Source: an uncultured Candidatus Rokubacteria bacterium | GTDB lineage: Bacteria > Methylomirabilota > Methylomirabilia > Rokubacteriales > DASRDR01 | NCBI GenBank assembly: GCA_963805625.1 | Contig: CAWDVE010000010.1 | Coordinates: forward strand, 1,184,001 to 1,248,000 | Reading direction: 5' to 3' | DNA: 64,000 nt | Shown here: positions 3,559 through 13,056 of the stretch, one piece after another | How the letters are laid out: each line of letters begins with the position of its first letter | How positions within the stretch are numbered: position 1 is the stretch's first letter | Notes under the pieces: model-generated | Told to the model about the DNA's origin: nothing | The model's database searches: none | What the model saw: the letters and a program-made list of their open reading frames with translations, nothing else | Translations under genes and position numbers: made by a program

Positions 3559-4737
3559 CTAGGTCAGGACATCCTCGAGGACGCGGCCGTCGACGCCGGC
3601 CGCGTCGATCCCCGTCAGGCGGCAGAGCGTCGGCATGAGGTCGATGGTGCGCCCGGCCCGGATCTCGGCGCCGGCCCGCACACCCGGCCCCGTCACCAGC
3701 ATCGGGATTCGCTGCTCGTGCTTGGAGCCGTGCGAGCGCAGTCCCGTCTCGGGGCGGTGCGCGGGCTCGTCCTCCCAGACGCCGAGGGCGACGTCCCGGG
3801 CCGCCCAGCAGATCAGGTCGCCGACGCGCTCGGGTGGAAGGTGATCGCGCCGCGCCTCGGCGTTCGGGACCACCTCATCGATGCCGGCGGTCCGCTCCAG
3901 GATGGCGTGCGCCTCGCGCGCCTTGCCCGGGTCTTCGAAGTAGAGGTAGAGCGCCCCGCCGAGATCCCGGTGGTGTGCGTAGAGCCCATCCCGGATGAGA
4001 GGCACGCCGTGGGTCGTGATGCCGGCCTCCGCCAGCACCCGCACCGGCGAGACGGAACGGAGCTTGGCGTTCATTCCGTGATCCGCCGTGAGGACGACGA
4101 CCGTCTCGGCAGGGTCGTACACGTCGAGGAGCCGCCCGAGCGCCTCGTCGCTGGCCTCGAGGTAGCGCTGCATGGCGGGCTCATCGGGCGCCAGCATGTG
4201 CTGGGGGTAGTCCGTCGTGGCCACGTAGAGGAAGGCCGGGCGCTCCCGGAGCGCGACCTCGCGGGCCATCCGGAACACCCAGAGATTGATGTCGAGGGAG
4301 AAGATCTCGGGCGGGGGCCCGGCCACCGCTCGGTGGGTCTCCGGGTGCGTCTTCATATCGACGCAAACGTCCAGGCCCCGACGGAGGAGCTTCGTCAGCT
4401 TCTCCTTCGCCGTGACGAGCGCCGTGGACCAGCCGGCTGCCTTGAAGTGCTCGAACACGAGAGGCTCCTGCACAAACGAGACCTGCTCCATGAAGACGTC
4501 CATCCGCGTAGCGCGATCGTAGTAGAAGTTCGTCGACAGACCGTGGCGCGCCGGGTAGGTGCCCGTGAGCAGCGAGATGTGGTTCACGTTCGTGAGGCTG
4601 GGGAGCACCCCGCGACCGTCGAGGGTCGAGGCGCCGGCCTTCATGAGCCCGGCCAGTCGCGGCATCCGGGCCGGCTGGACGTAGCCCGGGTCGAATCCGT
4701 CGAGGAGGAACATGAGGACGTGCTTCGGTCGCGTCAT
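3559..4737 (-). CDS. phnA: Phosphonoacetate hydrolase (alkaline phosphatase superfamily)
   Basis: LDGFD, PSLTNVNHISLLTG (Thr nucleophile), ATTDYPQH, TADHGMNAK and LRSHG match PhnA motifs. Lies directly downstream of phnW. Confidence 0.8.
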   Translation of the reverse strand: MTRPKHVLMFLLDGFDPGYVQPARMPRLAGLMKAGASTLDGRGVLPSLTNVNHISLLTGTYPARHGLSTNFYYDRATRMDVFMEQVSFVQEPLVFEHFKAAGWSTALVTAKEKLTKLLRRGLDVCVDMKTHPETHRAVAGPPPEIFSLDINLWVFRMAREVALRERPAFLYVATTDYPQHMLAPDEPAMQRYLEASDEALGRLLDVYDPAETVVVLTADHGMNAKLRSVSPVRVLAEAGITTHGVPLIRDGLYAHHRDLGGALYLYFEDPGKAREAHAILERTAGIDEVVPNAEARRDHLPPERVGDLICWAARDVALGVWEDEPAHRPETGLRSHGSKHEQRIPMLVTGPGVRAGAEIRAGRTIDLMPTLCRLTGIDAAGVDGRVLEDVLT

Positions 4738-4753
4738 CAGTCAGCCTCCGGGG

Positions 4754-5863
4754 TCACCGTCCGACCCCCACCGCCAGCTCTGAAAGGCTGGCCCGGAACG
4801 CCTCGACCACCCCCTCCATGTCCCGGGGGGTGAGCGTCCCCATGTTGGACACGCGAAACGCGTACGTGCGGATGTCCCCCTGGCCGGCGTAGATGATGTA
4901 CCCACGCCGCTTCATCGCGTCGTGGAGCCGGTCGTAGGCCAGTCCTGGCAGGAGCCGGAACGTCGTGAGGATGCTGGACCGCGCCGCCTCGGGGACCAGG
5001 ATCTCGAAGCCAAGCGCCGCCATGCCGCGCCGCAGCACGCGGGCGTTCTCCGCGTACCGGGCGATGCGGCCGGCCACTCCCTCGGCGTCGAGCTCGACGA
5101 GGGCCTGCCGCATCGCGTGGAGGACCTGGACCGCAGGGGTGAAGGGCGTGTTGTCCCGTTCCTGGCTCGTGTAGTGGCCGTGGAGATCCAGATAGACGCC
5201 GCGCGGTGGCTGCCCGGCCAGCGCGTCCAGCGCCGTTCGGCGACCGAGGACGAAGGCGATTCCCGGAACCCCCTGCAGACACTTGTTGGCGCTGGCCATC
5301 ACGAAGTCGACGCCGTCGGCGTCAACGTCGAGCCGCTCGCCGAAGAGCGAGCTCATGGCGTCGATCAGGACCCGGCGCCCCGCCCGCGCGGCCACCCGCG
5401 CGACGTCCATCACCGGGTTCAGGAGGCCCGTCGTGGTCTCGTGGTGGACGACCGCCACGTGGCTCAGCTCGGGACGCGCCCGGAGCGCGGCCTCGACGTC
5501 GGCCGGGGGCACGGGGGTGGTGACGTCGTACGCGAGCACCTCGGCCGCGATCCCGTGGACCCGCGCGATCCGGGCCAGGCGGTCCCCGTAGACGCCATTG
5601 TTCACGATCAGGACCGCGCGGTCCCTCGGCACCACCGAGCTGACGGCCGCCTCCACGGCGGCGGTCCCCGACCCGCTGAACAGCACCGCGGCGAAGCGCT
5701 CGTCGCAACCGGCCAGCCGGACGAGCCGAGCCCGGCACTCCCGCATCATCTCGAAGAACTCCGGCTCTCGGTGGCAGAGGTCTGGCATCACCAGGGCCTC
5801 CCGCACCGATCGGCTGGTGTTGGCAGGGCCGGGGTTCAGCAGGATCCACTCGCGCTCGCGCAT
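4754..5863 (-). CDS. phnW: 2-aminoethylphosphonate--pyruvate transaminase (class V PLP)
   Basis: ILLNPGP, DLCHREPEF, GSGTAAVEA, NGVYGDR, HHETTTG, DAMSS, SANKCLQGVPG (PLP Lys), TPFTP, YIIYAGQG. Confidence 0.85.
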   Translation of the reverse strand: MREREWILLNPGPANTSRSVREALVMPDLCHREPEFFEMMRECRARLVRLAGCDERFAAVLFSGSGTAAVEAAVSSVVPRDRAVLIVNNGVYGDRLARIARVHGIAAEVLAYDVTTPVPPADVEAALRARPELSHVAVVHHETTTGLLNPVMDVARVAARAGRRVLIDAMSSLFGERLDVDADGVDFVMASANKCLQGVPGIAFVLGRRTALDALAGQPPRGVYLDLHGHYTSQERDNTPFTPAVQVLHAMRQALVELDAEGVAGRIARYAENARVLRRGMAALGFEILVPEAARSSILTTFRLLPGLAYDRLHDAMKRRGYIIYAGQGDIRTYAFRVSNMGTLTPRDMEGVVEAFRASLSELAVGVGR

Positions 5864-6335: not shown

Positions 6336-6983
6336 GTGGGCAGCGAACCCGACCCCCCTGAAGCCGACCCGCACATCGAGCCGCGCTCCGCCGAGAGCCG
6401 GGTCGTACTGCGACGGCACCGGCTATCCCACCTGCCCGGTCTCGAGGTGAACGGCAGCATCTTCGATACCCGATACGCCCCCGGATCCTCGCCGGGACAC
6501 TGCGACGGGATGTGCTGTTCGAGCGGCGTTAAGGTCGATGTCGCCCACCGCGATCAGATCCTCGCCCACGCCGATCTCATCCGGCGCGCGATGGACCCCG
6601 GCCAGGACCAGGATGTCGGCGGCTGGTTCGAGGAGACGGAGACCCCGGACTCTGACTTCCCGTCCGGCCGGTGCGTTGGTACGCAGGTGCGCGGGAACGG
6701 GTGCGTCTTTCTGAACGCGGCGCGGCGGTGCGTCCTCCAAGCGGTGACGATCGCCATCGCCCGGCCGGGCTTCGATCTCAAGCCATTCTTCTGCTCGGCC
6801 TTCCCCATCACGATCGCGGCCGGCGCCTTGTGGATCGACGAGATGTGTCTCGACGCGCCCGAGGGCTGCTGCCGGCCGACCCCCGGGGGCCCGCTGGGCG
6901 TTCTCGACGTCTGCGAGGCCGAGTTGCGCCACACGCTCGGGAACGAGGGGCTCGAGGAGCTCCGCCTGGCAGTCAAGGAGTAG
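6336..6983 (+). CDS. DUF3109-like Cys-rich (putative Fe-S/Zn-binding) protein
   Basis: CDGMCC..G, GCVFL, RCVL, LKPFFCSAFPI pattern. Start uncertain. Confidence 0.65.
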   Translation: MGSEPDPPEADPHIEPRSAESRVVLRRHRLSHLPGLEVNGSIFDTRYAPGSSPGHCDGMCCSSGVKVDVAHRDQILAHADLIRRAMDPGQDQDVGGWFEETETPDSDFPSGRCVGTQVRGNGCVFLNAARRCVLQAVTIAIARPGFDLKPFFCSAFPITIAAGALWIDEMCLDAPEGCCRPTPGGPLGVLDVCEAELRHTLGNEGLEELRLAVKE

Positions 6984-7054
6984 CCGCCATCCAACGCGCC
7001 AGCGCCCACGTCCCTGTCCTCGGCCGCGCGGTCCGCGCGACCGGCCAGGCGGTC

Positions 7055-8140
7055 GTGACGGGAGCGCCCGAACGCAACGGCAGGCCGCGGTCAGCGCCTC
7101 GGATCGGCTTCGCCTTCAACAAGAAACCGGACGACGGGGCCCCACCGGCCATCGCGCCCCCCAGGAACCGGAGTCTCGGGGACCCCGCGGATCTCTACGC
7201 CGAGTGGGACGACGAGGTCACGATCGCGGCAATCGAGGCGGCACTGGCGGAGACCGGCGAGGTCACGCGGCTGGAGGCCACGGAGGACTTCCCGCTCCGG
7301 CTTCGGGAGTCGAAGCCCGACATCATCTTCAATGTGGCGGAAGGGCTCTGGGGGCCGAACCGCGAGGCCCACGTGCCAGCCCTCTGCGAGTTCTGGGGCG
7401 TGCCCTACACGGGAAGCGATCCCCTCACCCTGGCGATCTGTCTGGACAAGGGCCGCGCCAAGGAGATCCTTGCTTACCACGGCATTCCGACCGCGGAGTT
7501 CACCGTCGCCCCCGGAAGGGCTCCGCTCGACGGGACCCCGCGGCTGCCCGTGGTCGTGAAACCGATCCACGAGGGCTCCAGCAAGGGGATCACCCAGGCG
7601 TCGCTCTGCCGGACTCGGGCCGAGGTGGGGCGCGCCGTCGGCCTGGTGTGGCGGCGTTACCGCCAGCCGGCGCTCGTCGAGCGGTGGCTGCCCGGCCGCG
7701 AGTTCACCTGCGCGATACTCGGGAACGGCCCGAGCGCCCGCGTCCTGCCGCTGGTCGAGGTCGATTTCGACGCGCTGCCTCGCGGGGCGGCGCGCCTCTA
7801 CTCGTACGAAGCCAAGTGGTTGTGGGACCGACCAGAGCGGCCGCTCGCCATCTTCCAGTGCCCCGCCTCGCTCCCGCGCGGGCTCGCGCGGCAGATTGAG
7901 CAGACGGTGCTGGCCGCCTATCGCGTCTTGCGCTGCCGGGACTGGGCCCGCATCGACGTTCGCTGCGACGCCCGAGGGGTGCCACACATCCTCGAGGTGA
8001 ACCCTCTCCCGGGGGTGCTTCCGGACCCGGCCATGAACTCCTGTTTCCCCAAGGCTGCGCGGGCTGCCGGCATGGACTACGGGTCCATGATCCGGGCCGT
8101 CCTGCGGGCCGGAGCCGTGCGCCATGGCATTGTCGTCTAG
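7055..8140 (+). CDS. D-Ala-D-Ala ligase-like ATP-grasp peptide ligase 1
   Basis: AEWDDEVTI, FNVAEG..GPNREA, PYTGSD, LDK, VVKPIHEGSSKGI, GREFT, ARIDVR, LEVNPLPG. Start refined to GTG 7055. Confidence 0.85.
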   Translation: MTGAPERNGRPRSAPRIGFAFNKKPDDGAPPAIAPPRNRSLGDPADLYAEWDDEVTIAAIEAALAETGEVTRLEATEDFPLRLRESKPDIIFNVAEGLWGPNREAHVPALCEFWGVPYTGSDPLTLAICLDKGRAKEILAYHGIPTAEFTVAPGRAPLDGTPRLPVVVKPIHEGSSKGITQASLCRTRAEVGRAVGLVWRRYRQPALVERWLPGREFTCAILGNGPSARVLPLVEVDFDALPRGAARLYSYEAKWLWDRPERPLAIFQCPASLPRGLARQIEQTVLAAYRVLRCRDWARIDVRCDARGVPHILEVNPLPGVLPDPAMNSCFPKAARAAGMDYGSMIRAVLRAGAVRHGIVV

Positions 8141-9272
8141 GCCTCGGCTGGGAGTGCGGGGGCGGCTCCGCGTGGCGGTCATCACCGATGCCCTGTCGGA
8201 GGCGACGGCCCAGGCCCTCGGCACGCCGTCGGCCCCCGGCAACCCCGGGCCGGTGCTGGCCGCGCTGCGGGCGCTCGGCTACGACCCGGTGCTGGTCGAG
8301 TTCAACGGCAACCCCTCGGAGTGGCTGGCTGAGCTGGCAACCGGGCGCTTCCAGCTGGTGTTCAACCTGTGCGAGGGCCTGAGCAACCAGGCGGCCGGCG
8401 AGCCCGTCGCCGCGGCTCTCGTCGAGCTCCTCGGGATTCCCCTGACCGGCGCCTCGTCCGACATGCTCGCGCTGTGTCTCCGGAAGGACCGGGCGAACGC
8501 CGTGCTCTGCGCCCACGGGGTCCCGGTGCCGGAGTGGATCCTGGTGCGGCCGGGCGTCGCCCGGGCACGGTGGCGCCGGTTCCCGGCCATCGTCAAGCCG
8601 GCCGGCGAGGACGGGTCGTTCGGGATCGGCGCCGACTGCATAGTAGGCGATCGGGCCGCGCTCGAGGCCGTCGTGGCGCGCGGATGCCAGCAGTGGGGCC
8701 GCATGCTCGTCCAGCGCTTCGTCGGAGGCCGGGAGTTCAACCTGGCGATCGTCGGTGGGCGGGTGCTTCCCCACGCCGAGATCGACTTCAGCCGCCTTGC
8801 TCCGGGACTGCCCGCGGTGGTGACGTACGCGGCGAAGTGGGAGCACGGCAGTCCGGCGGACCGGGGGACGGTGCCGAGGTGCCCCGCGCGCCTGCCGGCC
8901 CGACTCGCTGCCCGTCTGACCCAGCTCGCCGAGCGCGTCTGGGCCGCCGTGGACGGCACCGGATACGGCCGCATCGACGTCCGTGTCGACGGCCGGGGCA
9001 CGACGTTCGTCACGGACGTGAACCCGAATCCGGACCTCGGGGTCCGGGCGGGACTGGCGCGCCAGGCGGCCGCCGCGGGGTGGAGCTATCTCGACCTGAT
9101 CGCCCGGATCGTCGAGGACGCCCTCGCCCGTGCGCGCCGGGCAAGCGGACCCGGTCCGACTCCTCCAGCGGCGCTCGCAGACGCTCGACGCCTGATGGAG
9201 GGCATGCCCTACACCCAGCGCCTCGCGTCGGCCCTCGGCCGGCGTGAGCCAAGGGGGACGAGGCCGACGTGA
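8124..9272 (+). CDS. D-Ala-D-Ala ligase-like ATP-grasp peptide ligase 2
   Basis: VFNLCEG, PLTGAS, IVKPAGEDGSFGI, GGREFN, TYAAKW, GYGRIDVR, DVNPNPDL. Overlaps ligase 1. Confidence 0.85.
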   Translation: MALSSRPRLGVRGRLRVAVITDALSEATAQALGTPSAPGNPGPVLAALRALGYDPVLVEFNGNPSEWLAELATGRFQLVFNLCEGLSNQAAGEPVAAALVELLGIPLTGASSDMLALCLRKDRANAVLCAHGVPVPEWILVRPGVARARWRRFPAIVKPAGEDGSFGIGADCIVGDRAALEAVVARGCQQWGRMLVQRFVGGREFNLAIVGGRVLPHAEIDFSRLAPGLPAVVTYAAKWEHGSPADRGTVPRCPARLPARLAARLTQLAERVWAAVDGTGYGRIDVRVDGRGTTFVTDVNPNPDLGVRAGLARQAAAAGWSYLDLIARIVEDALARARRASGPGPTPPAALADARRLMEGMPYTQRLASALGRREPRGTRPT

Positions 9273-10468
9273 CCTATTGGCAAGAGAGTCTCCGCGAGTC
9301 GGTGACCACGGTCGACGAGCTCGTCAAGCGCTTCGGGGTCGACTACATCGACCAGGAAGCCGTGCAGCGAGCGATCGACGGGTTCAACCTCCGCATCACT
9401 CCCGAGATGCTCAATCTCGTGAAGGAGCCGGGAGACGCGATCTGGCGGCAGTACGTTCCCACGGCCCAGGAGAACGAGGTGGTGGACGGGATCGTCGACT
9501 CGCTCGGCGAGGATGCCGATTCGCCGGTCCCGAACATCACCCACCGCTACCCCGACCGTGTCCTCTTCCTCGTGAGCCCGGTCTGCGCCGCCTACTGCCG
9601 CTTCTGCACGCGGCGGCGCAAGGTGGGCGATCCCGAGAAGATCCCCCTCGGCCAGTTCGACGCAGCGTTCGACTACATCCGGCAGCACACCGAGGTCCGG
9701 GACGTCAGCCTGTCTGGGGGCGACCCCCTGATGCTCTCGGATCGGCGGGTCGAGTATTTCCTTGCGAAGCTCCGGGCGATCCCCCACGTCGAGATCGTGC
9801 GCATCCACACCCGGATCCCCTCTCAGCTGCCCGAGCGCATCACGCCGGAGCTCTGCGAGACGATCAAAAAGTTTCACCCCGTGTTCGTGAACGTGCATTT
9901 CAACCATCCGGACGAGCTGACGCCGGCAACCCGGACCGCGCTCGGGATGCTCGCCGACGCCGGCTGCCCCCTGGGCAGCCAGACCGTCCTCCTGAAAGGT
10001 GTAAACGACGATCCGGTCATCATGAAGCGGCTCATGCAGGAGCTTCTCAAGTGCCGGGTCCGACCCTACTACCTCTACCAGGCGGACCTCGTCGCGGGCG
10101 GGGAGCACTTCCGGACGTCCGTCGCCAAGGGAATCGAGATCATCGAGGCGCTTCGGGGATGGACCTCGGGGCTGGCCGTCCCGCACTTCGTCATCGACGC
10201 GCCCGGTGGCGGCGGGAAGATCCCGCTCTTGCCCGAGTACGTGCAGTCGGTCACCGATCGGGAGGTTGTGCTGCGGAATTACGCCGGCAAGACGTTCCAG
10301 TACATCCTACCGAAAGCGGACGACCCGCCCCCGCTGAGGCCAGCTGTCGCCCCGGCCCGCGGAAGCTCCGCGCCAAGGCCAGGAAAGCAGAAGGGGCGAG
10401 TCGCGAGTGCGGCTCACCCCTTCCCGTTGCCGTCCCTGAAGGCTCAGAGGAATCCGGCCGGGCGCTGA
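9269..10468 (+). CDS. kamA: KamA-family radical SAM aminomutase (lysine 2,3-aminomutase-like)
   Basis: THRYPDRVL, CAAYCRFC (CxxxCxxC), SGGDPL, HFNHP, QTVLLKGVND, PYYLYQAD, DAPGGGGKIP (PLP Lys). GTGA overlap with ligase 2. Confidence 0.9.
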   Translation: MTYWQESLRESVTTVDELVKRFGVDYIDQEAVQRAIDGFNLRITPEMLNLVKEPGDAIWRQYVPTAQENEVVDGIVDSLGEDADSPVPNITHRYPDRVLFLVSPVCAAYCRFCTRRRKVGDPEKIPLGQFDAAFDYIRQHTEVRDVSLSGGDPLMLSDRRVEYFLAKLRAIPHVEIVRIHTRIPSQLPERITPELCETIKKFHPVFVNVHFNHPDELTPATRTALGMLADAGCPLGSQTVLLKGVNDDPVIMKRLMQELLKCRVRPYYLYQADLVAGGEHFRTSVAKGIEIIEALRGWTSGLAVPHFVIDAPGGGGKIPLLPEYVQSVTDREVVLRNYAGKTFQYILPKADDPPPLRPAVAPARGSSAPRPGKQKGRVASAAHPFPLPSLKAQRNPAGR

Positions 10469-10670: not shown

Positions 10671-11051
10671 TCACGCGGCCTGGAGCCGTCGAGCGTGGCG
10701 CGCCACGGTGCCGAGCGGACGAACGACGGCCGGTTCCGGGGTCAGAACCAGTTCGTACCGGCCCGCGCCCGCCCGCGTCAGGGTCTCGTGGGCGATGGCC
10801 ACGATGCGGCTCACCGTCGCCGGCCGGCCGACTGGGACCTGGATCTCGACGCGCCACGGGCCTCCCAGCGGCTTGGTGACCAGCGGGGCCACGATCGGTC
10901 CCAGCTCGTCCGCGATGGCGTCGGTCAACCGCACCTGCCGGGCGACCACGGCCTCCCGGCGGTGGTCGCGCCATGCGGCGAGCCCGAGCAGTCCCAAAAT
11001 CACAAGGATCGGCGAGGACATTGTCAGGGTCGCGATCGCTACCGTCATCAT
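10671..11051 (-). CDS. Hypothetical membrane-anchored protein
   Basis: Strong GGAGGAGG RBS before ATG ATG. TM segment PILVILGLLGLAAW followed by a small soluble domain. Confidence 0.65.
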   Translation of the reverse strand: MMTVAIATLTMSSPILVILGLLGLAAWRDHRREAVVARQVRLTDAIADELGPIVAPLVTKPLGGPWRVEIQVPVGRPATVSRIVAIAHETLTRAGAGRYELVLTPEPAVVRPLGTVARHARRLQAA

Positions 11052-11078: not shown

Positions 11079-11105
11079 AGACACCGCTCGGACGGCGGCG
11101 TGAAA
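11079..11105 (-). promoter_or_regulatory. Putative ECF sigma promoter TTTCAC-N17-GTCT (copy 2)
   Basis: Minus strand TTTCAC gccgccgtccgagcggt GTCT. Same -35/-10 elements and spacing as the motif upstream of the ECF sigma gene. Confidence 0.65.
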
Positions 11106-11132: not shown

Positions 11133-11290
11133 CTACTGGGCGAGAAAGGGCTCGAGGGCGGCCAGGGTCTCGGCCGGAGCTTCCTCGGGCAGGAAGTGGC
11201 CAGAGGCCACCGGCTGACCCCGGACGTCGCGGGCCCAGTCACGCCAGATGGCGAAGTACCGGCGGCCCGTGGCCCCCGACGACGGTGTGG
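11133..11290 (-). pseudogene. C-terminal remnant of alpha/beta hydrolase (haloacetate dehalogenase-like)
   Basis: AIWRDWARDVRGQPVASGHFLPEEAPAETLAALEPFL is the conserved C-terminus with the catalytic His. No N-terminal part is present. Confidence 0.6.
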
Positions 11291-11375
11291 ATCTCGGCCT
11301 CGCGCGTCCGGAGCCGCTCACGGCGGAACCCCGAGAACAGCGCCTCGTCCGCCGGACCCGCGGGATCGGGCTCGC

Positions 11376-12350
11376 TCAATTGACCTCGTGGAGGGGGTGG
11401 AGGTCCGGGCGGCAGCTCGTGCAGGGGTGGAGCCCGACCGCCTCGGCTCGGCTCCGGGAGCCGAAGTAGGTCAGCAGCCCGGACCGGAGCGTCTCCATCG
11501 ACGGGCAGCTTGGGAGGCAGTACTCGCTGTCGCCGGGCGCGAGCAGGTACATTGCGCCCCGCGCCACTGCGAAGTCGTTGTGCGCCGGTACGAGGGGCAC
11601 GCCTTCGGTCGCGAGCAACTGCCGCTTCCGACCGGTCTCACCGCCCGCGTAGCCCGTCAAGAGACCCGACGCTCCCACCACCCGGTGGCACGGGATGGCG
11701 ATGGGGACCGGGTTCCACCGGAGCGCTTGCGCCACGGCCCGCACCGCCCGAGGCTGTCCCAGGTCGCTCGCCAGCCGCTTGTACGACACCACCGCGCCGT
11801 ACGGGATGCTGGCGGTGCGCTCGAGAACCTTCCGCTGGAACGGGCTCCTCGCCAGCCGGAGGTCGAGCGCCCACGGGAGCTGCTGCGCCCGCCCCTCGAT
11901 GTACGCTTGGAACTCCCGGTAGAGCTCCTCGGACTCGCCTCCGTCCTCGACCGCCTCGATCCCACGCATCCGCGCGAGACGCGAGGCCCCGAGATCGCGT
12001 CGGCCGTGGAGGTACTCCAGCAGGACGACTCCCTGCTCCGAGTGCGCCAGGAGGATCGGCCCCAGCGTCGAATCGAATACCCGGTAGGCGACGATGCGGC
12101 TCCGGAGGTCGTCGAGCCTCGCGTCGAGCCGCTCACGCGACTGCGCCACACCCTGGGCGTCCACGGCCGCCTCCCGGATCACCCCGAGCTCGCGATCGAT
12201 GGCCTGGTAGCCCGAGTGCTCGACCCGGCACGACTCGCACTTCGCGACGTGCGCGGCCACGCGGCCCTCGGTGCCGGCGTCCGCTTCGCCGATCGCCGCG
12301 GCCACGAGGTCCGCCTCGATCTCGGTGCAGCTCGCCCCCTTTCGCTTCAC
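11376..12350 (-). CDS. Fusion: zf-HC2 (ZAS) anti-sigma domain + methylated-DNA--protein-cysteine methyltransferase (Ogt) + C-terminal Ada-type Zn finger
   Basis: N-terminal HVAKCESC (HxxxCxxC). Central IPYGAVVSY, RAVAQAL..NPVPIAIPCHRVV, GYAGG. C-terminal YCLPSC-x27-CTSCRP. GTG start overlaps the sigma stop (GTGA). Confidence 0.85.
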   Translation of the reverse strand: MKRKGASCTEIEADLVAAAIGEADAGTEGRVAAHVAKCESCRVEHSGYQAIDRELGVIREAAVDAQGVAQSRERLDARLDDLRSRIVAYRVFDSTLGPILLAHSEQGVVLLEYLHGRRDLGASRLARMRGIEAVEDGGESEELYREFQAYIEGRAQQLPWALDLRLARSPFQRKVLERTASIPYGAVVSYKRLASDLGQPRAVRAVAQALRWNPVPIAIPCHRVVGASGLLTGYAGGETGRKRQLLATEGVPLVPAHNDFAVARGAMYLLAPGDSEYCLPSCPSMETLRSGLLTYFGSRSRAEAVGLHPCTSCRPDLHPLHEVN

Positions 12351-12874
12351 GACACGAGCTCCTTCCCGATCAGCTCGCGCCCCTCGAGGGCACGGCGAAC
12401 CTTCCGGAGAGCCTGAAATACGTGGGCCCGAGCGGTCTCGGCCGAGCACTCCAGGCTCCGGCCTATCGCTTCGTAGTCGAGCCCGTGGACCTTCCGCTGG
12501 AGGAAGGCCAGGCGCTGCTTGAGCGGGAGCCCGGAGACGACGTGCTCGACAGCCGCCCCGATCTCCTGCGACAGAGTGACGGTGTCCGGCCGCTCTTGGT
12601 CCGTCTCCCGCACCTCGGTCACCACCGCGGCATAGGCCAACCGGCGCCGCTTCTGCGACCGGAAGTGGTTCCGGGTGAGGTTCGTCGCGATCGCGAAGAG
12701 CCAGGCCCGGGAGTTGGCATCGGGCGGGAGCGTCCGGTGGGCGCGGAAGGCCCGCAGGAACGTCTCCTGCGCGAGGTCGTCGGCATCCTGCCGCCGCCCG
12801 GTCACCCGGAGCACATACCGGTAGATCTCTGCATGGTGGTCAGACATAAGCGCCTCGAACGTCCGATCGCCCAT
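12347..12874 (-). CDS. ECF (group 4) RNA polymerase sigma-70 factor
   Basis: Region 2: DADDLAQETFLRAF, RAWLFAIATN. Region 4: LPLKQRLAF..GLDYEAIG..TARAHVFQALRKVR. About 175 aa; start could be GTG 12877 or ATG 12874. Confidence 0.92.
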   Translation of the reverse strand: MGDRTFEALMSDHHAEIYRYVLRVTGRRQDADDLAQETFLRAFRAHRTLPPDANSRAWLFAIATNLTRNHFRSQKRRRLAYAAVVTEVRETDQERPDTVTLSQEIGAAVEHVVSGLPLKQRLAFLQRKVHGLDYEAIGRSLECSAETARAHVFQALRKVRRALEGRELIGKELVS

Positions 12875-12883
12875 CACTCCCAA

Positions 12884-12910
12884 AGACCCCGCAGCCGGGC
12901 CGCCGTGAAA
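12884..12910 (-). promoter_or_regulatory. Putative autoregulatory ECF promoter TTTCAC-N17-GTCT (copy 1)
   Basis: Minus strand TTTCAC ggcggcccggctgcggg GTCT. The -10 element ends 6-9 nt before the sigma start, implying a leaderless or near-leaderless mRNA. Confidence 0.65.
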
Positions 12911-13056
12911 GGGCGCCCAGTTCGGCCCTGGCGCGCCAGCGGATGAATCGTGATTATTGTCAACGTAATAAACATGTTATCTATCATCGTCTCGGAATCA
13001 GTCTGATCTAGAGCCAACACCAGTCGAGACCCGTCCTCAAACCTCGGCGAGCCTCG

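Follow-up and report, generated by a model that had tools for sequence, protein, structure and literature searches.

A conserved sigma factor gene overlapping a predicted anti-sigma/DNA alkyltransferase fusion in Rokubacteria: a candidate switch for sensing DNA alkylation

In a 64,000-nucleotide (nt) stretch of the genome of an uncultured Candidatus Rokubacteria bacterium from a soil lineage (contig CAWDVE010000010.1 of assembly GCA_963805625.1; hereafter the window), the gene for an extracytoplasmic function (ECF) sigma factor overlaps the gene for a 324-amino-acid (aa) protein in which a predicted zinc-containing anti-sigma (ZAS) domain is fused to an O6-methylguanine-DNA methyltransferase (MGMT) and an Ada-type zinc finger. 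We consider it, on balance, probable that this fusion works as an anti-sigma factor and, by way of its own repair reaction, also as the sensor of DNA alkylation, such that methyl transfer to the MGMT cysteine destabilizes the fusion and frees the sigma factor. The module is real and strongly conserved, and while the pairing of such a sigma factor with an MGMT has been catalogued, our analysis adds the fused anti-sigma domain, a promoter, and a predicted regulon.

Both genes lie on the minus strand, and the GTG start of the fusion overlaps the sigma factor stop codon by 4 nt (GTGA, 12347-12350), as a first-pass annotation of this DNA had described (Table 1). The upstream open reading frame (ORF) is an ECF (group 4) sigma-70 factor, short and with sigma2 and sigma4 only, which matches Sigma70_r2 (E 8.7e-17) and Sigma70_r4_2 (E 8.7e-10) in Pfam and reaches 83.6 bits with TIGR02937 (cut-off 42.9). 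The fusion has eight cysteines (C8, C38, and C41; C221; C278, C282, C310, and C313), and the three motifs attributed to it, HxxxCxxC, PCHR, and Cx3C-x27-Cx2C, are all present. The domain names proposed for them fared unequally in a scan with hidden Markov models: DNA_binding_1 (E 5.5e-30) and Ada_Zn_binding (26.2 bits, cut-off 23) scored above cut-off, whereas zf-HC2 (aa 8-42) reached 17.9 bits, under its cut-off of 22.2, or 20.9 bits with the N-terminus alone. Methyltransf_1N reached 17.1 bits, under its cut-off of 21. The same scan returned no AraC or helix-turn-helix (HTH) match in the fusion, which ends 11 aa past its last cysteine, and since the source genome has just two Ada_Zn matches, one in the fusion itself and one in an open frame of 62 aa, it has no Ada-AraC match either, in agreement with the earlier remark that an AraC HTH is absent.

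Because all three motifs co-occur in 113 of 121 proteins (the query and its top 120 homologues), their combination is not a product of chance. The closest titled relatives come from metagenome-assembled genomes of Rokubacteria/Methylomirabilota (80-95% identity), and across the phylum, 112 of 151 genomes match the fusion at E<=1e-20. A table read by hand gave a full or near-full fusion in 87 of the 106 genomes of the order, which the titles of relatives indicate to be Rokubacteriales. In the rest of the class, 1 of 45 genomes has it, and the other matches are at the MGMT level; these tallies include three genomes flagged as unpublished (G029, G058, G101). The sigma factor gene is directly upstream of the fusion in 39 of 40 loci (five of which repeat others and one of which is the source genome), the single miss being a contig end, and the 4-nt overlap is kept in 37 of 39, so the pairing is conserved, as the proposal in the annotation required. 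In one locus (L002, 3476-4004), the sigma factor gene is split by a frameshift into two high-scoring segment pairs, which reflects either an assembly error or inactivation.

Sigma-linked partners come in four types: ZAS-MGMT-Ada, ZAS-MGMT, short extension-MGMT-Ada, and short extension-MGMT. Across several lineages, the MGMT and an N-terminal extension are constant, whereas the ZAS domain is often absent, as is the Ada finger. MGMTs with no sigma factor mostly have no extension (the exceptions are L222, L250, and L268), and 17 scanned MGMTs with a ZAS motif comprise 13 with a sigma factor upstream, 3 with too little flanking sequence, and 1 (L250) with none within 2 kb. The coupling of sigma factor and MGMT recurs in several sigma clades of a quick tree, in which the window sigma factor falls in a clade apart from its counterparts in Rhodococcus (similar to catalogued group ECF122; 40% identity over only 77 aa) and Streptomyces (similar to group ECF203, loci L185 and L269; 33-35% identity). 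This tree has only 8 outgroup sigma factors and an unsure root, so MGMT-linked sigma factors may or may not be monophyletic. Relatives (L275-L278, L281-L286, L288, L302) carry two more sigma-MGMT types, one with an ECF122-like short-helix MGMT and one with a short-extension MGMT-Ada fusion whose finger is basic and Ada-like, and neither has the promoter described below.

Both in sequence and in structure models, the N-terminus of the fusion resembles an anti-sigma domain, one predicted to bind the neighboring sigma factor, as the first-pass annotation had proposed. Its ZAS motif has the spacing C8-x25-H34xxxC38xxC41, the four ligands are invariant in all 31 rows of the close-family alignment, and zf-HC2 matches 37 of 39 homologous N-termini at E<=0.05. 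AlphaFold2 models the fusion with a predicted local distance difference test (pLDDT) score of 93 and a predicted template modeling score of 0.78, and the four predicted helices (6-19, 25-37, 39-60, 65-85) continue into the alkyltransferase. Foldseek with the N-terminus folded alone placed the anti-sigma factors ChrR, RsiW, RslA, and MucA in its top rows, and a sequence search of the PDB with the N-terminal profile gave rows only at E>=0.095, in which DdvA and RsiW appeared alongside unrelated zinc fingers. A complex model of sigma residues 1-168 with fusion residues 4-255 scored 0.78, compared to 0.00 for the best of three controls, and its runs share at least 92% of contacts with a partner pLDDT of at least 84. 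Of 157 solved complexes, 116 reach the mark for this score, as do 2 of 215 mismatched pairs; with the custom alignments used for this model, these counts apply only approximately. In the model, helix 4 (aa 67-83) packs on sigma2 and helix 3 (aa 43-59) on sigma4, and MGMT residues 86, 88, 132, and 134-139 also contact the sigma factor, with E132, E135, D136, and E139 kept in 25-29 of 31 homologues. Since MGMT residues take part in these contacts, the model ties the grip on the sigma factor to the MGMT fold.

The module also has a predicted promoter of its own. Of 42 regions upstream of sigma factor genes, 40 contain the motif TTTCAC-N13-CGG[G/T]GTCT, most often at a distance of 9 nt from the start codon; they represent 34 distinct sites, one of them in the unpublished genome G029. 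In the window, the -10 element likewise ends 9 nt before the sigma factor ATG, so the transcript is likely leaderless or near-leaderless and the operon would be in an autoregulatory loop. Among 61 genomes of the order, 56 contain the exact motif, with 152 matches in total, and 41 contain a variant that ends in GTC[A/C/G], with 64 in total; the control gave 0 in each case (a reversed pattern for the exact motif). When 57 genomes were sorted by the fusion, the motif was present in 50 of 51 fusion-bearing genomes versus 2 of 6 without a fusion match, these genomes being kin and not independent, and one of the two exceptions has a sigma factor gene at a contig end. Within the source genome, the strict motif is enriched at the 13-nt spacer (7 matches versus 0-2 at other spacers), a loose pattern shows no enrichment there (13 versus 4-26), and only 25 sites in 7.3 Mb reach 16 bits. 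Four Acidobacteriota genomes gave 16 matches versus 13 for the control, and we therefore infer no regulon in that group. A scan for sigma-70 promoters upstream found one weak -35/-10 site at 12953-12980 (minus strand), and a terminator scan at the locus found none. Upstream of the sigma factor promoter, window positions 12900-13050 form an A+T-rich stretch.

We predicted a regulon from 110 stretches fetched for the exact pattern, after setting aside most of the sites that appeared to be the promoter of the sigma factor itself, and from 58 fetched for the variant, two of which were dropped as unpublished. Downstream ORFs were chosen by a heuristic; three sites gave none, and the result was 164 ORFs (163 distinct). 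These cluster into DinB-like proteins (40), a small membrane protein (36, a cluster that includes the 126-aa protein of the window), DUF2652 (22), ECF sigma factors (14), 60-80-aa peptides (9), Usp (5), arginase-like proteins (4), SRPBCC (3), plain Ogt (3), EamA (2), alpha/beta hydrolases (2), and AdaA-AlkA (1), with small unnamed groups or singletons as the remainder. Three histidines are kept in all 32 DinB-like proteins that were aligned, and since a three-histidine site is a feature of metal-dependent thiol transferases of the DinB/STL type (PMC5815605), these proteins may be thiol transferases as well. The peptide family has no Pfam match and lies behind the promoter in nine loci (L101, L106, L145, L326, L327, L330, L351, L355, L358). 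Other promoter sites of the source genome, at G000:C14:98568 (+), C17:932049 (-), and C13:74070 (-), are followed by a DUF2652-like gene, in a leaderless arrangement, as well as by a DinB-like gene and small hydrophobic ORFs.

The motif also precedes a second, plain ogt gene in 8 of 9 genomes of the same genus, scoring 16.2 bits in the source genome and 16.3-25.8 bits in four others, with the exact pattern in three; the one remaining genome reaches 8.0 bits. In the source genome, this Ogt is encoded at G000:C10:1382310-1382927 (+) (L174), with the promoter-like site 84 nt before its start. The suggestion of a sigma-based adaptive response to alkylation thus gains from the promoter before a second Ogt but not from the regulon as a whole, which as predicted is mostly of a detoxification type, unlike the ada/alkA/alkB set of E. 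coli.

How the parts could work together begins with what the locus itself displays, namely the gene order, the 4-nt overlap, the intact MGMT residues, and the conserved promoter motif. All 31 close homologues share Y190, R204, N213, C221, H222, R223, Y234, K242, and E249, residues that also line up with solved Ogt and Ada-C, in keeping with the description of the methyl-acceptor domain as intact in the annotation. The fusion is next predicted to hold the sigma factor through the contacts described above, those of helices 3 and 4 with sigma4 and sigma2, respectively, and those of the MGMT residues. Alkylation of C221 would then destabilize the fusion and lead to its unfolding or degradation, as alkylation is known to destabilize alkyltransferases (PMC5751216; PMC10779285). 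The freed sigma factor would transcribe from TTTCAC-N13-CGG[G/T]GTCT promoters, which would serve its own operon, the second plain Ogt of the genus, DinB/STL thiol-transferase-like proteins, DUF2652, and small membrane proteins. Fresh MGMT/anti-sigma protein made from the operon would both repair DNA and reset the switch.

An unlikely but credible alternative is that the module is a general switch for electrophile or thiol stress, in which the zinc thiolates of the ZAS domain or of the acidic finger are alkylated or oxidized directly and the MGMT is a fused effector. A regulon rich in three-histidine DinB/STL proteins and dehalogenase-like hydrolases would fit such a switch, as would a finger that retains four cysteines while its basic charge is lost, and RsrA-type ZAS proteins are thiol sensors (PMC3177212). 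However, the residues flanking the cysteines on which the redox sensitivity of RsrA depends, E39, E40, L45, and E46 (PMC3177212), align to A36, K37, R42, and V43 in the fusion and are not conserved in the 31 homologues, 26 of which have arginine at position 42, and many sigma-linked partners have neither ZAS domain nor finger but always an MGMT. It is improbable, in our judgment, that release comes from competition by lesions, whereby docking of the MGMT on damaged DNA displaces the sigma factor or reversibly opens the fold and methyl transfer is unneeded. The contact between the MGMT domain and the sigma factor in the complex model would allow this, and the Sulfolobus enzyme opens at lesion recognition, ahead of transfer (PMC5751216), but the catalytic cysteine is invariant in all 31 close homologues, unlike in alkyltransferase-like proteins, and the predicted contacts lie on the N-terminal subdomain of the MGMT, not on its DNA-binding HTH.

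The first-pass annotation had taken the C-terminal finger for a methylphosphotriester sensor, which raises a third alternative, that C278 accepts a methyl group from DNA phosphotriesters and so triggers release; this we regard as very improbable. The four finger cysteines do align to C38, C42, C69, and C72 of N-Ada (E 6e-05 to 1ADN) and do not vary among the 31 close homologues. However, R43, R45, R67, and R71 of E. coli Ada, of which R45 and R71 read DNA (PMC4437013), align to P, M, H, and S, and the finger has CLPSC and PCTSC where N-Ada has CRPSC and PCKRC (PMC4437013, PMC10779285). At the R39, R43, R45, and R71 positions, none of the residues most common in 32 close homologues is an arginine. 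The net charge of the finger, taken from the 32 of 33 close homologues that contain the pattern, ranges from -3 to +1 with a median of -1, compared to about +6 (range +1 to +9) in the non-ZAS sigma-linked partners with a finger (18 of 33). Since the basic residues are missing and the net charge is acidic, reading the finger as a phosphotriester sensor is disfavored for this family, and since many sigma-linked relatives have no finger at all, the MGMT is the likelier sensor. Rather than sensing the DNA backbone, the finger likely has a structural role or serves as an accessory sensor through its thiolates. Least credible is mere co-expression of the domains, with the N-terminus an ordinary anti-sigma for an unrelated signal, or not inhibiting at all, and the repair domains passengers. 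The orphan ZAS-MGMT of L250, the extended MGMT with no sigma factor in L222, and the lack of any listed anti-sigma for ECF122/ECF203 in the consulted parts of the catalogues speak for it. Against it stand the recurrence of sigma-MGMT coupling in several sigma clades and the matches to the N-terminal profile in longer proteins, the first 120 of 330 of which are either fusions with an MGMT or truncated pieces of roughly such a length.

Several observations weigh against the fusion being an anti-sigma that senses alkylation through its own repair. The fold matches of the N-terminus are weak, with every Foldseek row at E>1 and a VIA-align result in which RslA comes first (Z 6.4, root-mean-square deviation 4.7, 62 residues aligned) but is tied with unrelated helical proteins. 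Since similar sigma/ZAS complexes have already been solved, the complex score may reflect likeness to those pairs. Sigma binding, release, and induction are predictions for this pair, and a sigma-bound MGMT must still reach DNA, a step beyond the scope of the complex model. The ZAS-MGMT at L250 (1904-2741) has no sigma factor in the 2 kb upstream, and some relatives also have a classic Ada (L272, L287) or AdaA-AlkA. Most of the predicted regulon consists of non-repair genes, its three largest clusters being DinB-like, small membrane, and DUF2652 proteins. Finally, the motif was not found before the alkA-like gene of the source genome, and alkA was rejected as a regulon member, with a motif of at least 16 bits before 1 of 28 scored alkA-family genes (31 matches were listed and 30 came as loci, of which one was omitted as unpublished and one was too short). 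The sole case is an AdaA-AlkA fusion gene directly behind a strong promoter copy (25.8 bits) on G064:C114 (L309/L384).

Table 1. Coordinates in the window of the sigma factor operon, its parts, and the adjoining predicted regulon member
Feature	Position	Strand	Details
Predicted ECF operon promoter	12884..12910	-	-35 TTTCAC 12905-12910, 13-nt spacer, -10 CGGGGTCT 12884-12891
ECF (group 4) sigma-70 factor, 175 aa, sigma2 + sigma4 only	12347..12874	-	Pfam/TIGRFAM matches
324-aa fusion: predicted ZAS anti-sigma domain + O6-alkylguanine-DNA alkyltransferase + Ada-type zinc finger	11376..12350	-	
Predicted four-helix anti-sigma domain, aa 1-85	12096..12350	-	ZAS ligands C8/H34/C38/C41 at 12228-12329
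Fourth helix of anti-sigma domain, aa 65-85	12096-12158	-	predicted packing on sigma2
Alkyltransferase (MGMT/Ogt) domain, aa 86-251	11598..12095	-	Y190, R204, N213, C221, Y234, K242, E249
PCHR motif with C221	11682-11693	-	within MGMT domain of fusion
Ada-type zinc finger, aa 265-316	11403..11558	-	C278, C282, C310, C313; acidic, without the basic residues of E. coli N-Ada
Remnant of third operon gene, fluoroacetate-dehalogenase-like alpha/beta hydrolase	11133..11379	-	pseudogene
Second copy of predicted promoter	11079..11105	-	TTTCAC-N13-CGGTGTCT
126-aa protein, hydrophobic N-terminus, no Pfam family	10671..11051	-	predicted regulon member, usually just 3' of operon

Downstream of the fusion, the hydrolase remnant has a 668-nt internal frameshifting deletion relative to the intact 304-aa gene of a related locus (L001), and in several loci of the same genus, a fluoroacetate-dehalogenase-like hydrolase gene overlaps the fusion stop codon. 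The gene for the 126-aa protein has its own promoter copy and is linked to the operon across the order; its matches in the Atlas are unnamed clusters, most commonly from Methylomirabilota. The flanking genes scanned encode a molybdopterin oxidoreductase, a small membrane protein, and a radical-SAM aminomutase. At 6980-10468 (+), a lysine-2,3-aminomutase-like radical SAM gene, confirmed by Pfam, is preceded by two ORFs that we take, from their translations, to be ATP-grasp-like, and at 3559-5863 (-) the translations presumably represent a phosphonoacetate-hydrolase-like and aminoethylphosphonate-transaminase-like pair. Part of contig C10 (~15000-137000) looks A+T-rich and holds an alkA-like gene that is unlike the rest; the assembly lists 6.26% contamination.

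E. coli-type Ada is maybe conserved in only ~17% of sequenced bacterial genomes, and what adaptive response the others have is a question that has been asked (PMC7617703). A serious but tentative possibility is that the locus represents a widespread, Ada-independent alkylation response in which a suicide repair enzyme is the anti-sigma and in which the short N-terminal helix of ECF122/ECF203 methyltransferases is a minimal anti-sigma. If so, each repair event would destroy one inhibitor and the cell would count O6-alkylguanine lesions by titrating its own anti-sigma, and a minimal anti-sigma helix would explain these "orphan" sigma groups. The locus gives a testable answer to both the question of non-Ada adaptive responses and that of the ECF122 mechanism, as it offers a defined sigma factor, a partner with an explicit candidate anti-sigma domain, a promoter, and individual residues (C221, C278, the ZAS ligands, and L75 and L79 of helix 4). 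It would also mean a new input for ECF signaling, in which DNA damage is read via enzyme self-inactivation, and possibly a genetically encoded alkylation biosensor.

The annotation had regarded the switch as uncharacterized, and this needs qualifying, as the pair of sigma factor and MGMT is already catalogued in ECF122 and ECF203, while a literature search (titles and abstract openings, with subscription papers largely outside its reach) found no description of an anti-sigma/alkyltransferase switch. ECF122 is 100% actinobacterial, with an MGMT at +1, no putative anti-sigma, a CTCAC/CGTCTAC promoter, and a proposed role in DNA damage repair in the parts of the catalogue consulted (PMC7826278, Casas-Pastor et al. 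2021), and its methyltransferase is possibly involved in regulation by a mechanism listed as unknown (PMC8999054). Like ECF122, the window locus has an O6-methylguanine methyltransferase at +1 of an ECF sigma factor, and its predicted promoter is similar, in that it contains TCAC and GTCT, but with a consensus of its own (TTTCAC/CGG[G/T]GTCT); unlike ECF122, its +1 protein has a candidate ZAS domain and an Ada-type finger, and its relatives are Rokubacteria/Methylomirabilota. In Rhodococcus antarcticus (L266), the ECF122 arrangement with the exact ECF122 promoter is followed by a gene of a DNA-repair-annotated oxygenase family and an Ada-finger gene. We also considered whether the short extension at the N-terminus of ECF122-type MGMTs is homologous to helix 4 of the fusion, but this was not shown: the full-length profile alignment begins at residue 87, and the N-termini alone, although scoring above 60 of 60 column shuffles, gave a probability of 1.2% and aligned the extension to helix 3, not helix 4. 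The likeness to helix 4 stays a positional analogy.

ECF203, also actinobacterial, has an MGMT at +1 and Ada_Zn_binding in its context, with a TetR protein proposed as regulator and, in the same parts of the catalogue, no anti-sigma or conserved promoter reported (PMC7826278). The window locus has both the MGMT at +1 and Ada_Zn_binding but no TetR repressor among the flanking genes scanned, with more distant neighbors only partly scanned. ECF203-like Streptomyces loci (L185/L269) encode a helix-MGMT-Ada protein without a ZAS domain, plus a second MGMT. From these comparisons, the window pair appears to resemble ECF122 and ECF203 in how it would work, while its host range and its candidate anti-sigma domain differ from the descriptions of both groups.

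Two better-known systems share features with the fusion. As in the adaptive response of E. coli Ada or of AdaA, a suicide methyl acceptor would be the damage sensor of an autoregulated response, and both Ada domain types are found in the fusion. However, E. coli Ada is an activator that is switched on by methylation of its N-terminal C38 and uses an HTH (PMC4437013), whereas the fusion has no HTH, the reverse domain order, and a finger without the DNA-reading arginines, and its logic would be the loss of an inhibitor. Other ZAS anti-sigmas carry a fused sensing module as well, a cupin in ChrR and a membrane domain in RsiW. With the RsrA-SigR, ChrR-SigE, RsiW-SigW, and RslA-SigL pairs, the window pair shares the HX3CX2C motif, four predicted helices, a gene placed right after that of the sigma factor, and predicted contacts with sigma2 and sigma4; it differs in the absence of the RsrA redox determinants and in that the module fused to its candidate anti-sigma domain is neither a cupin nor a membrane domain but a DNA alkyltransferase.

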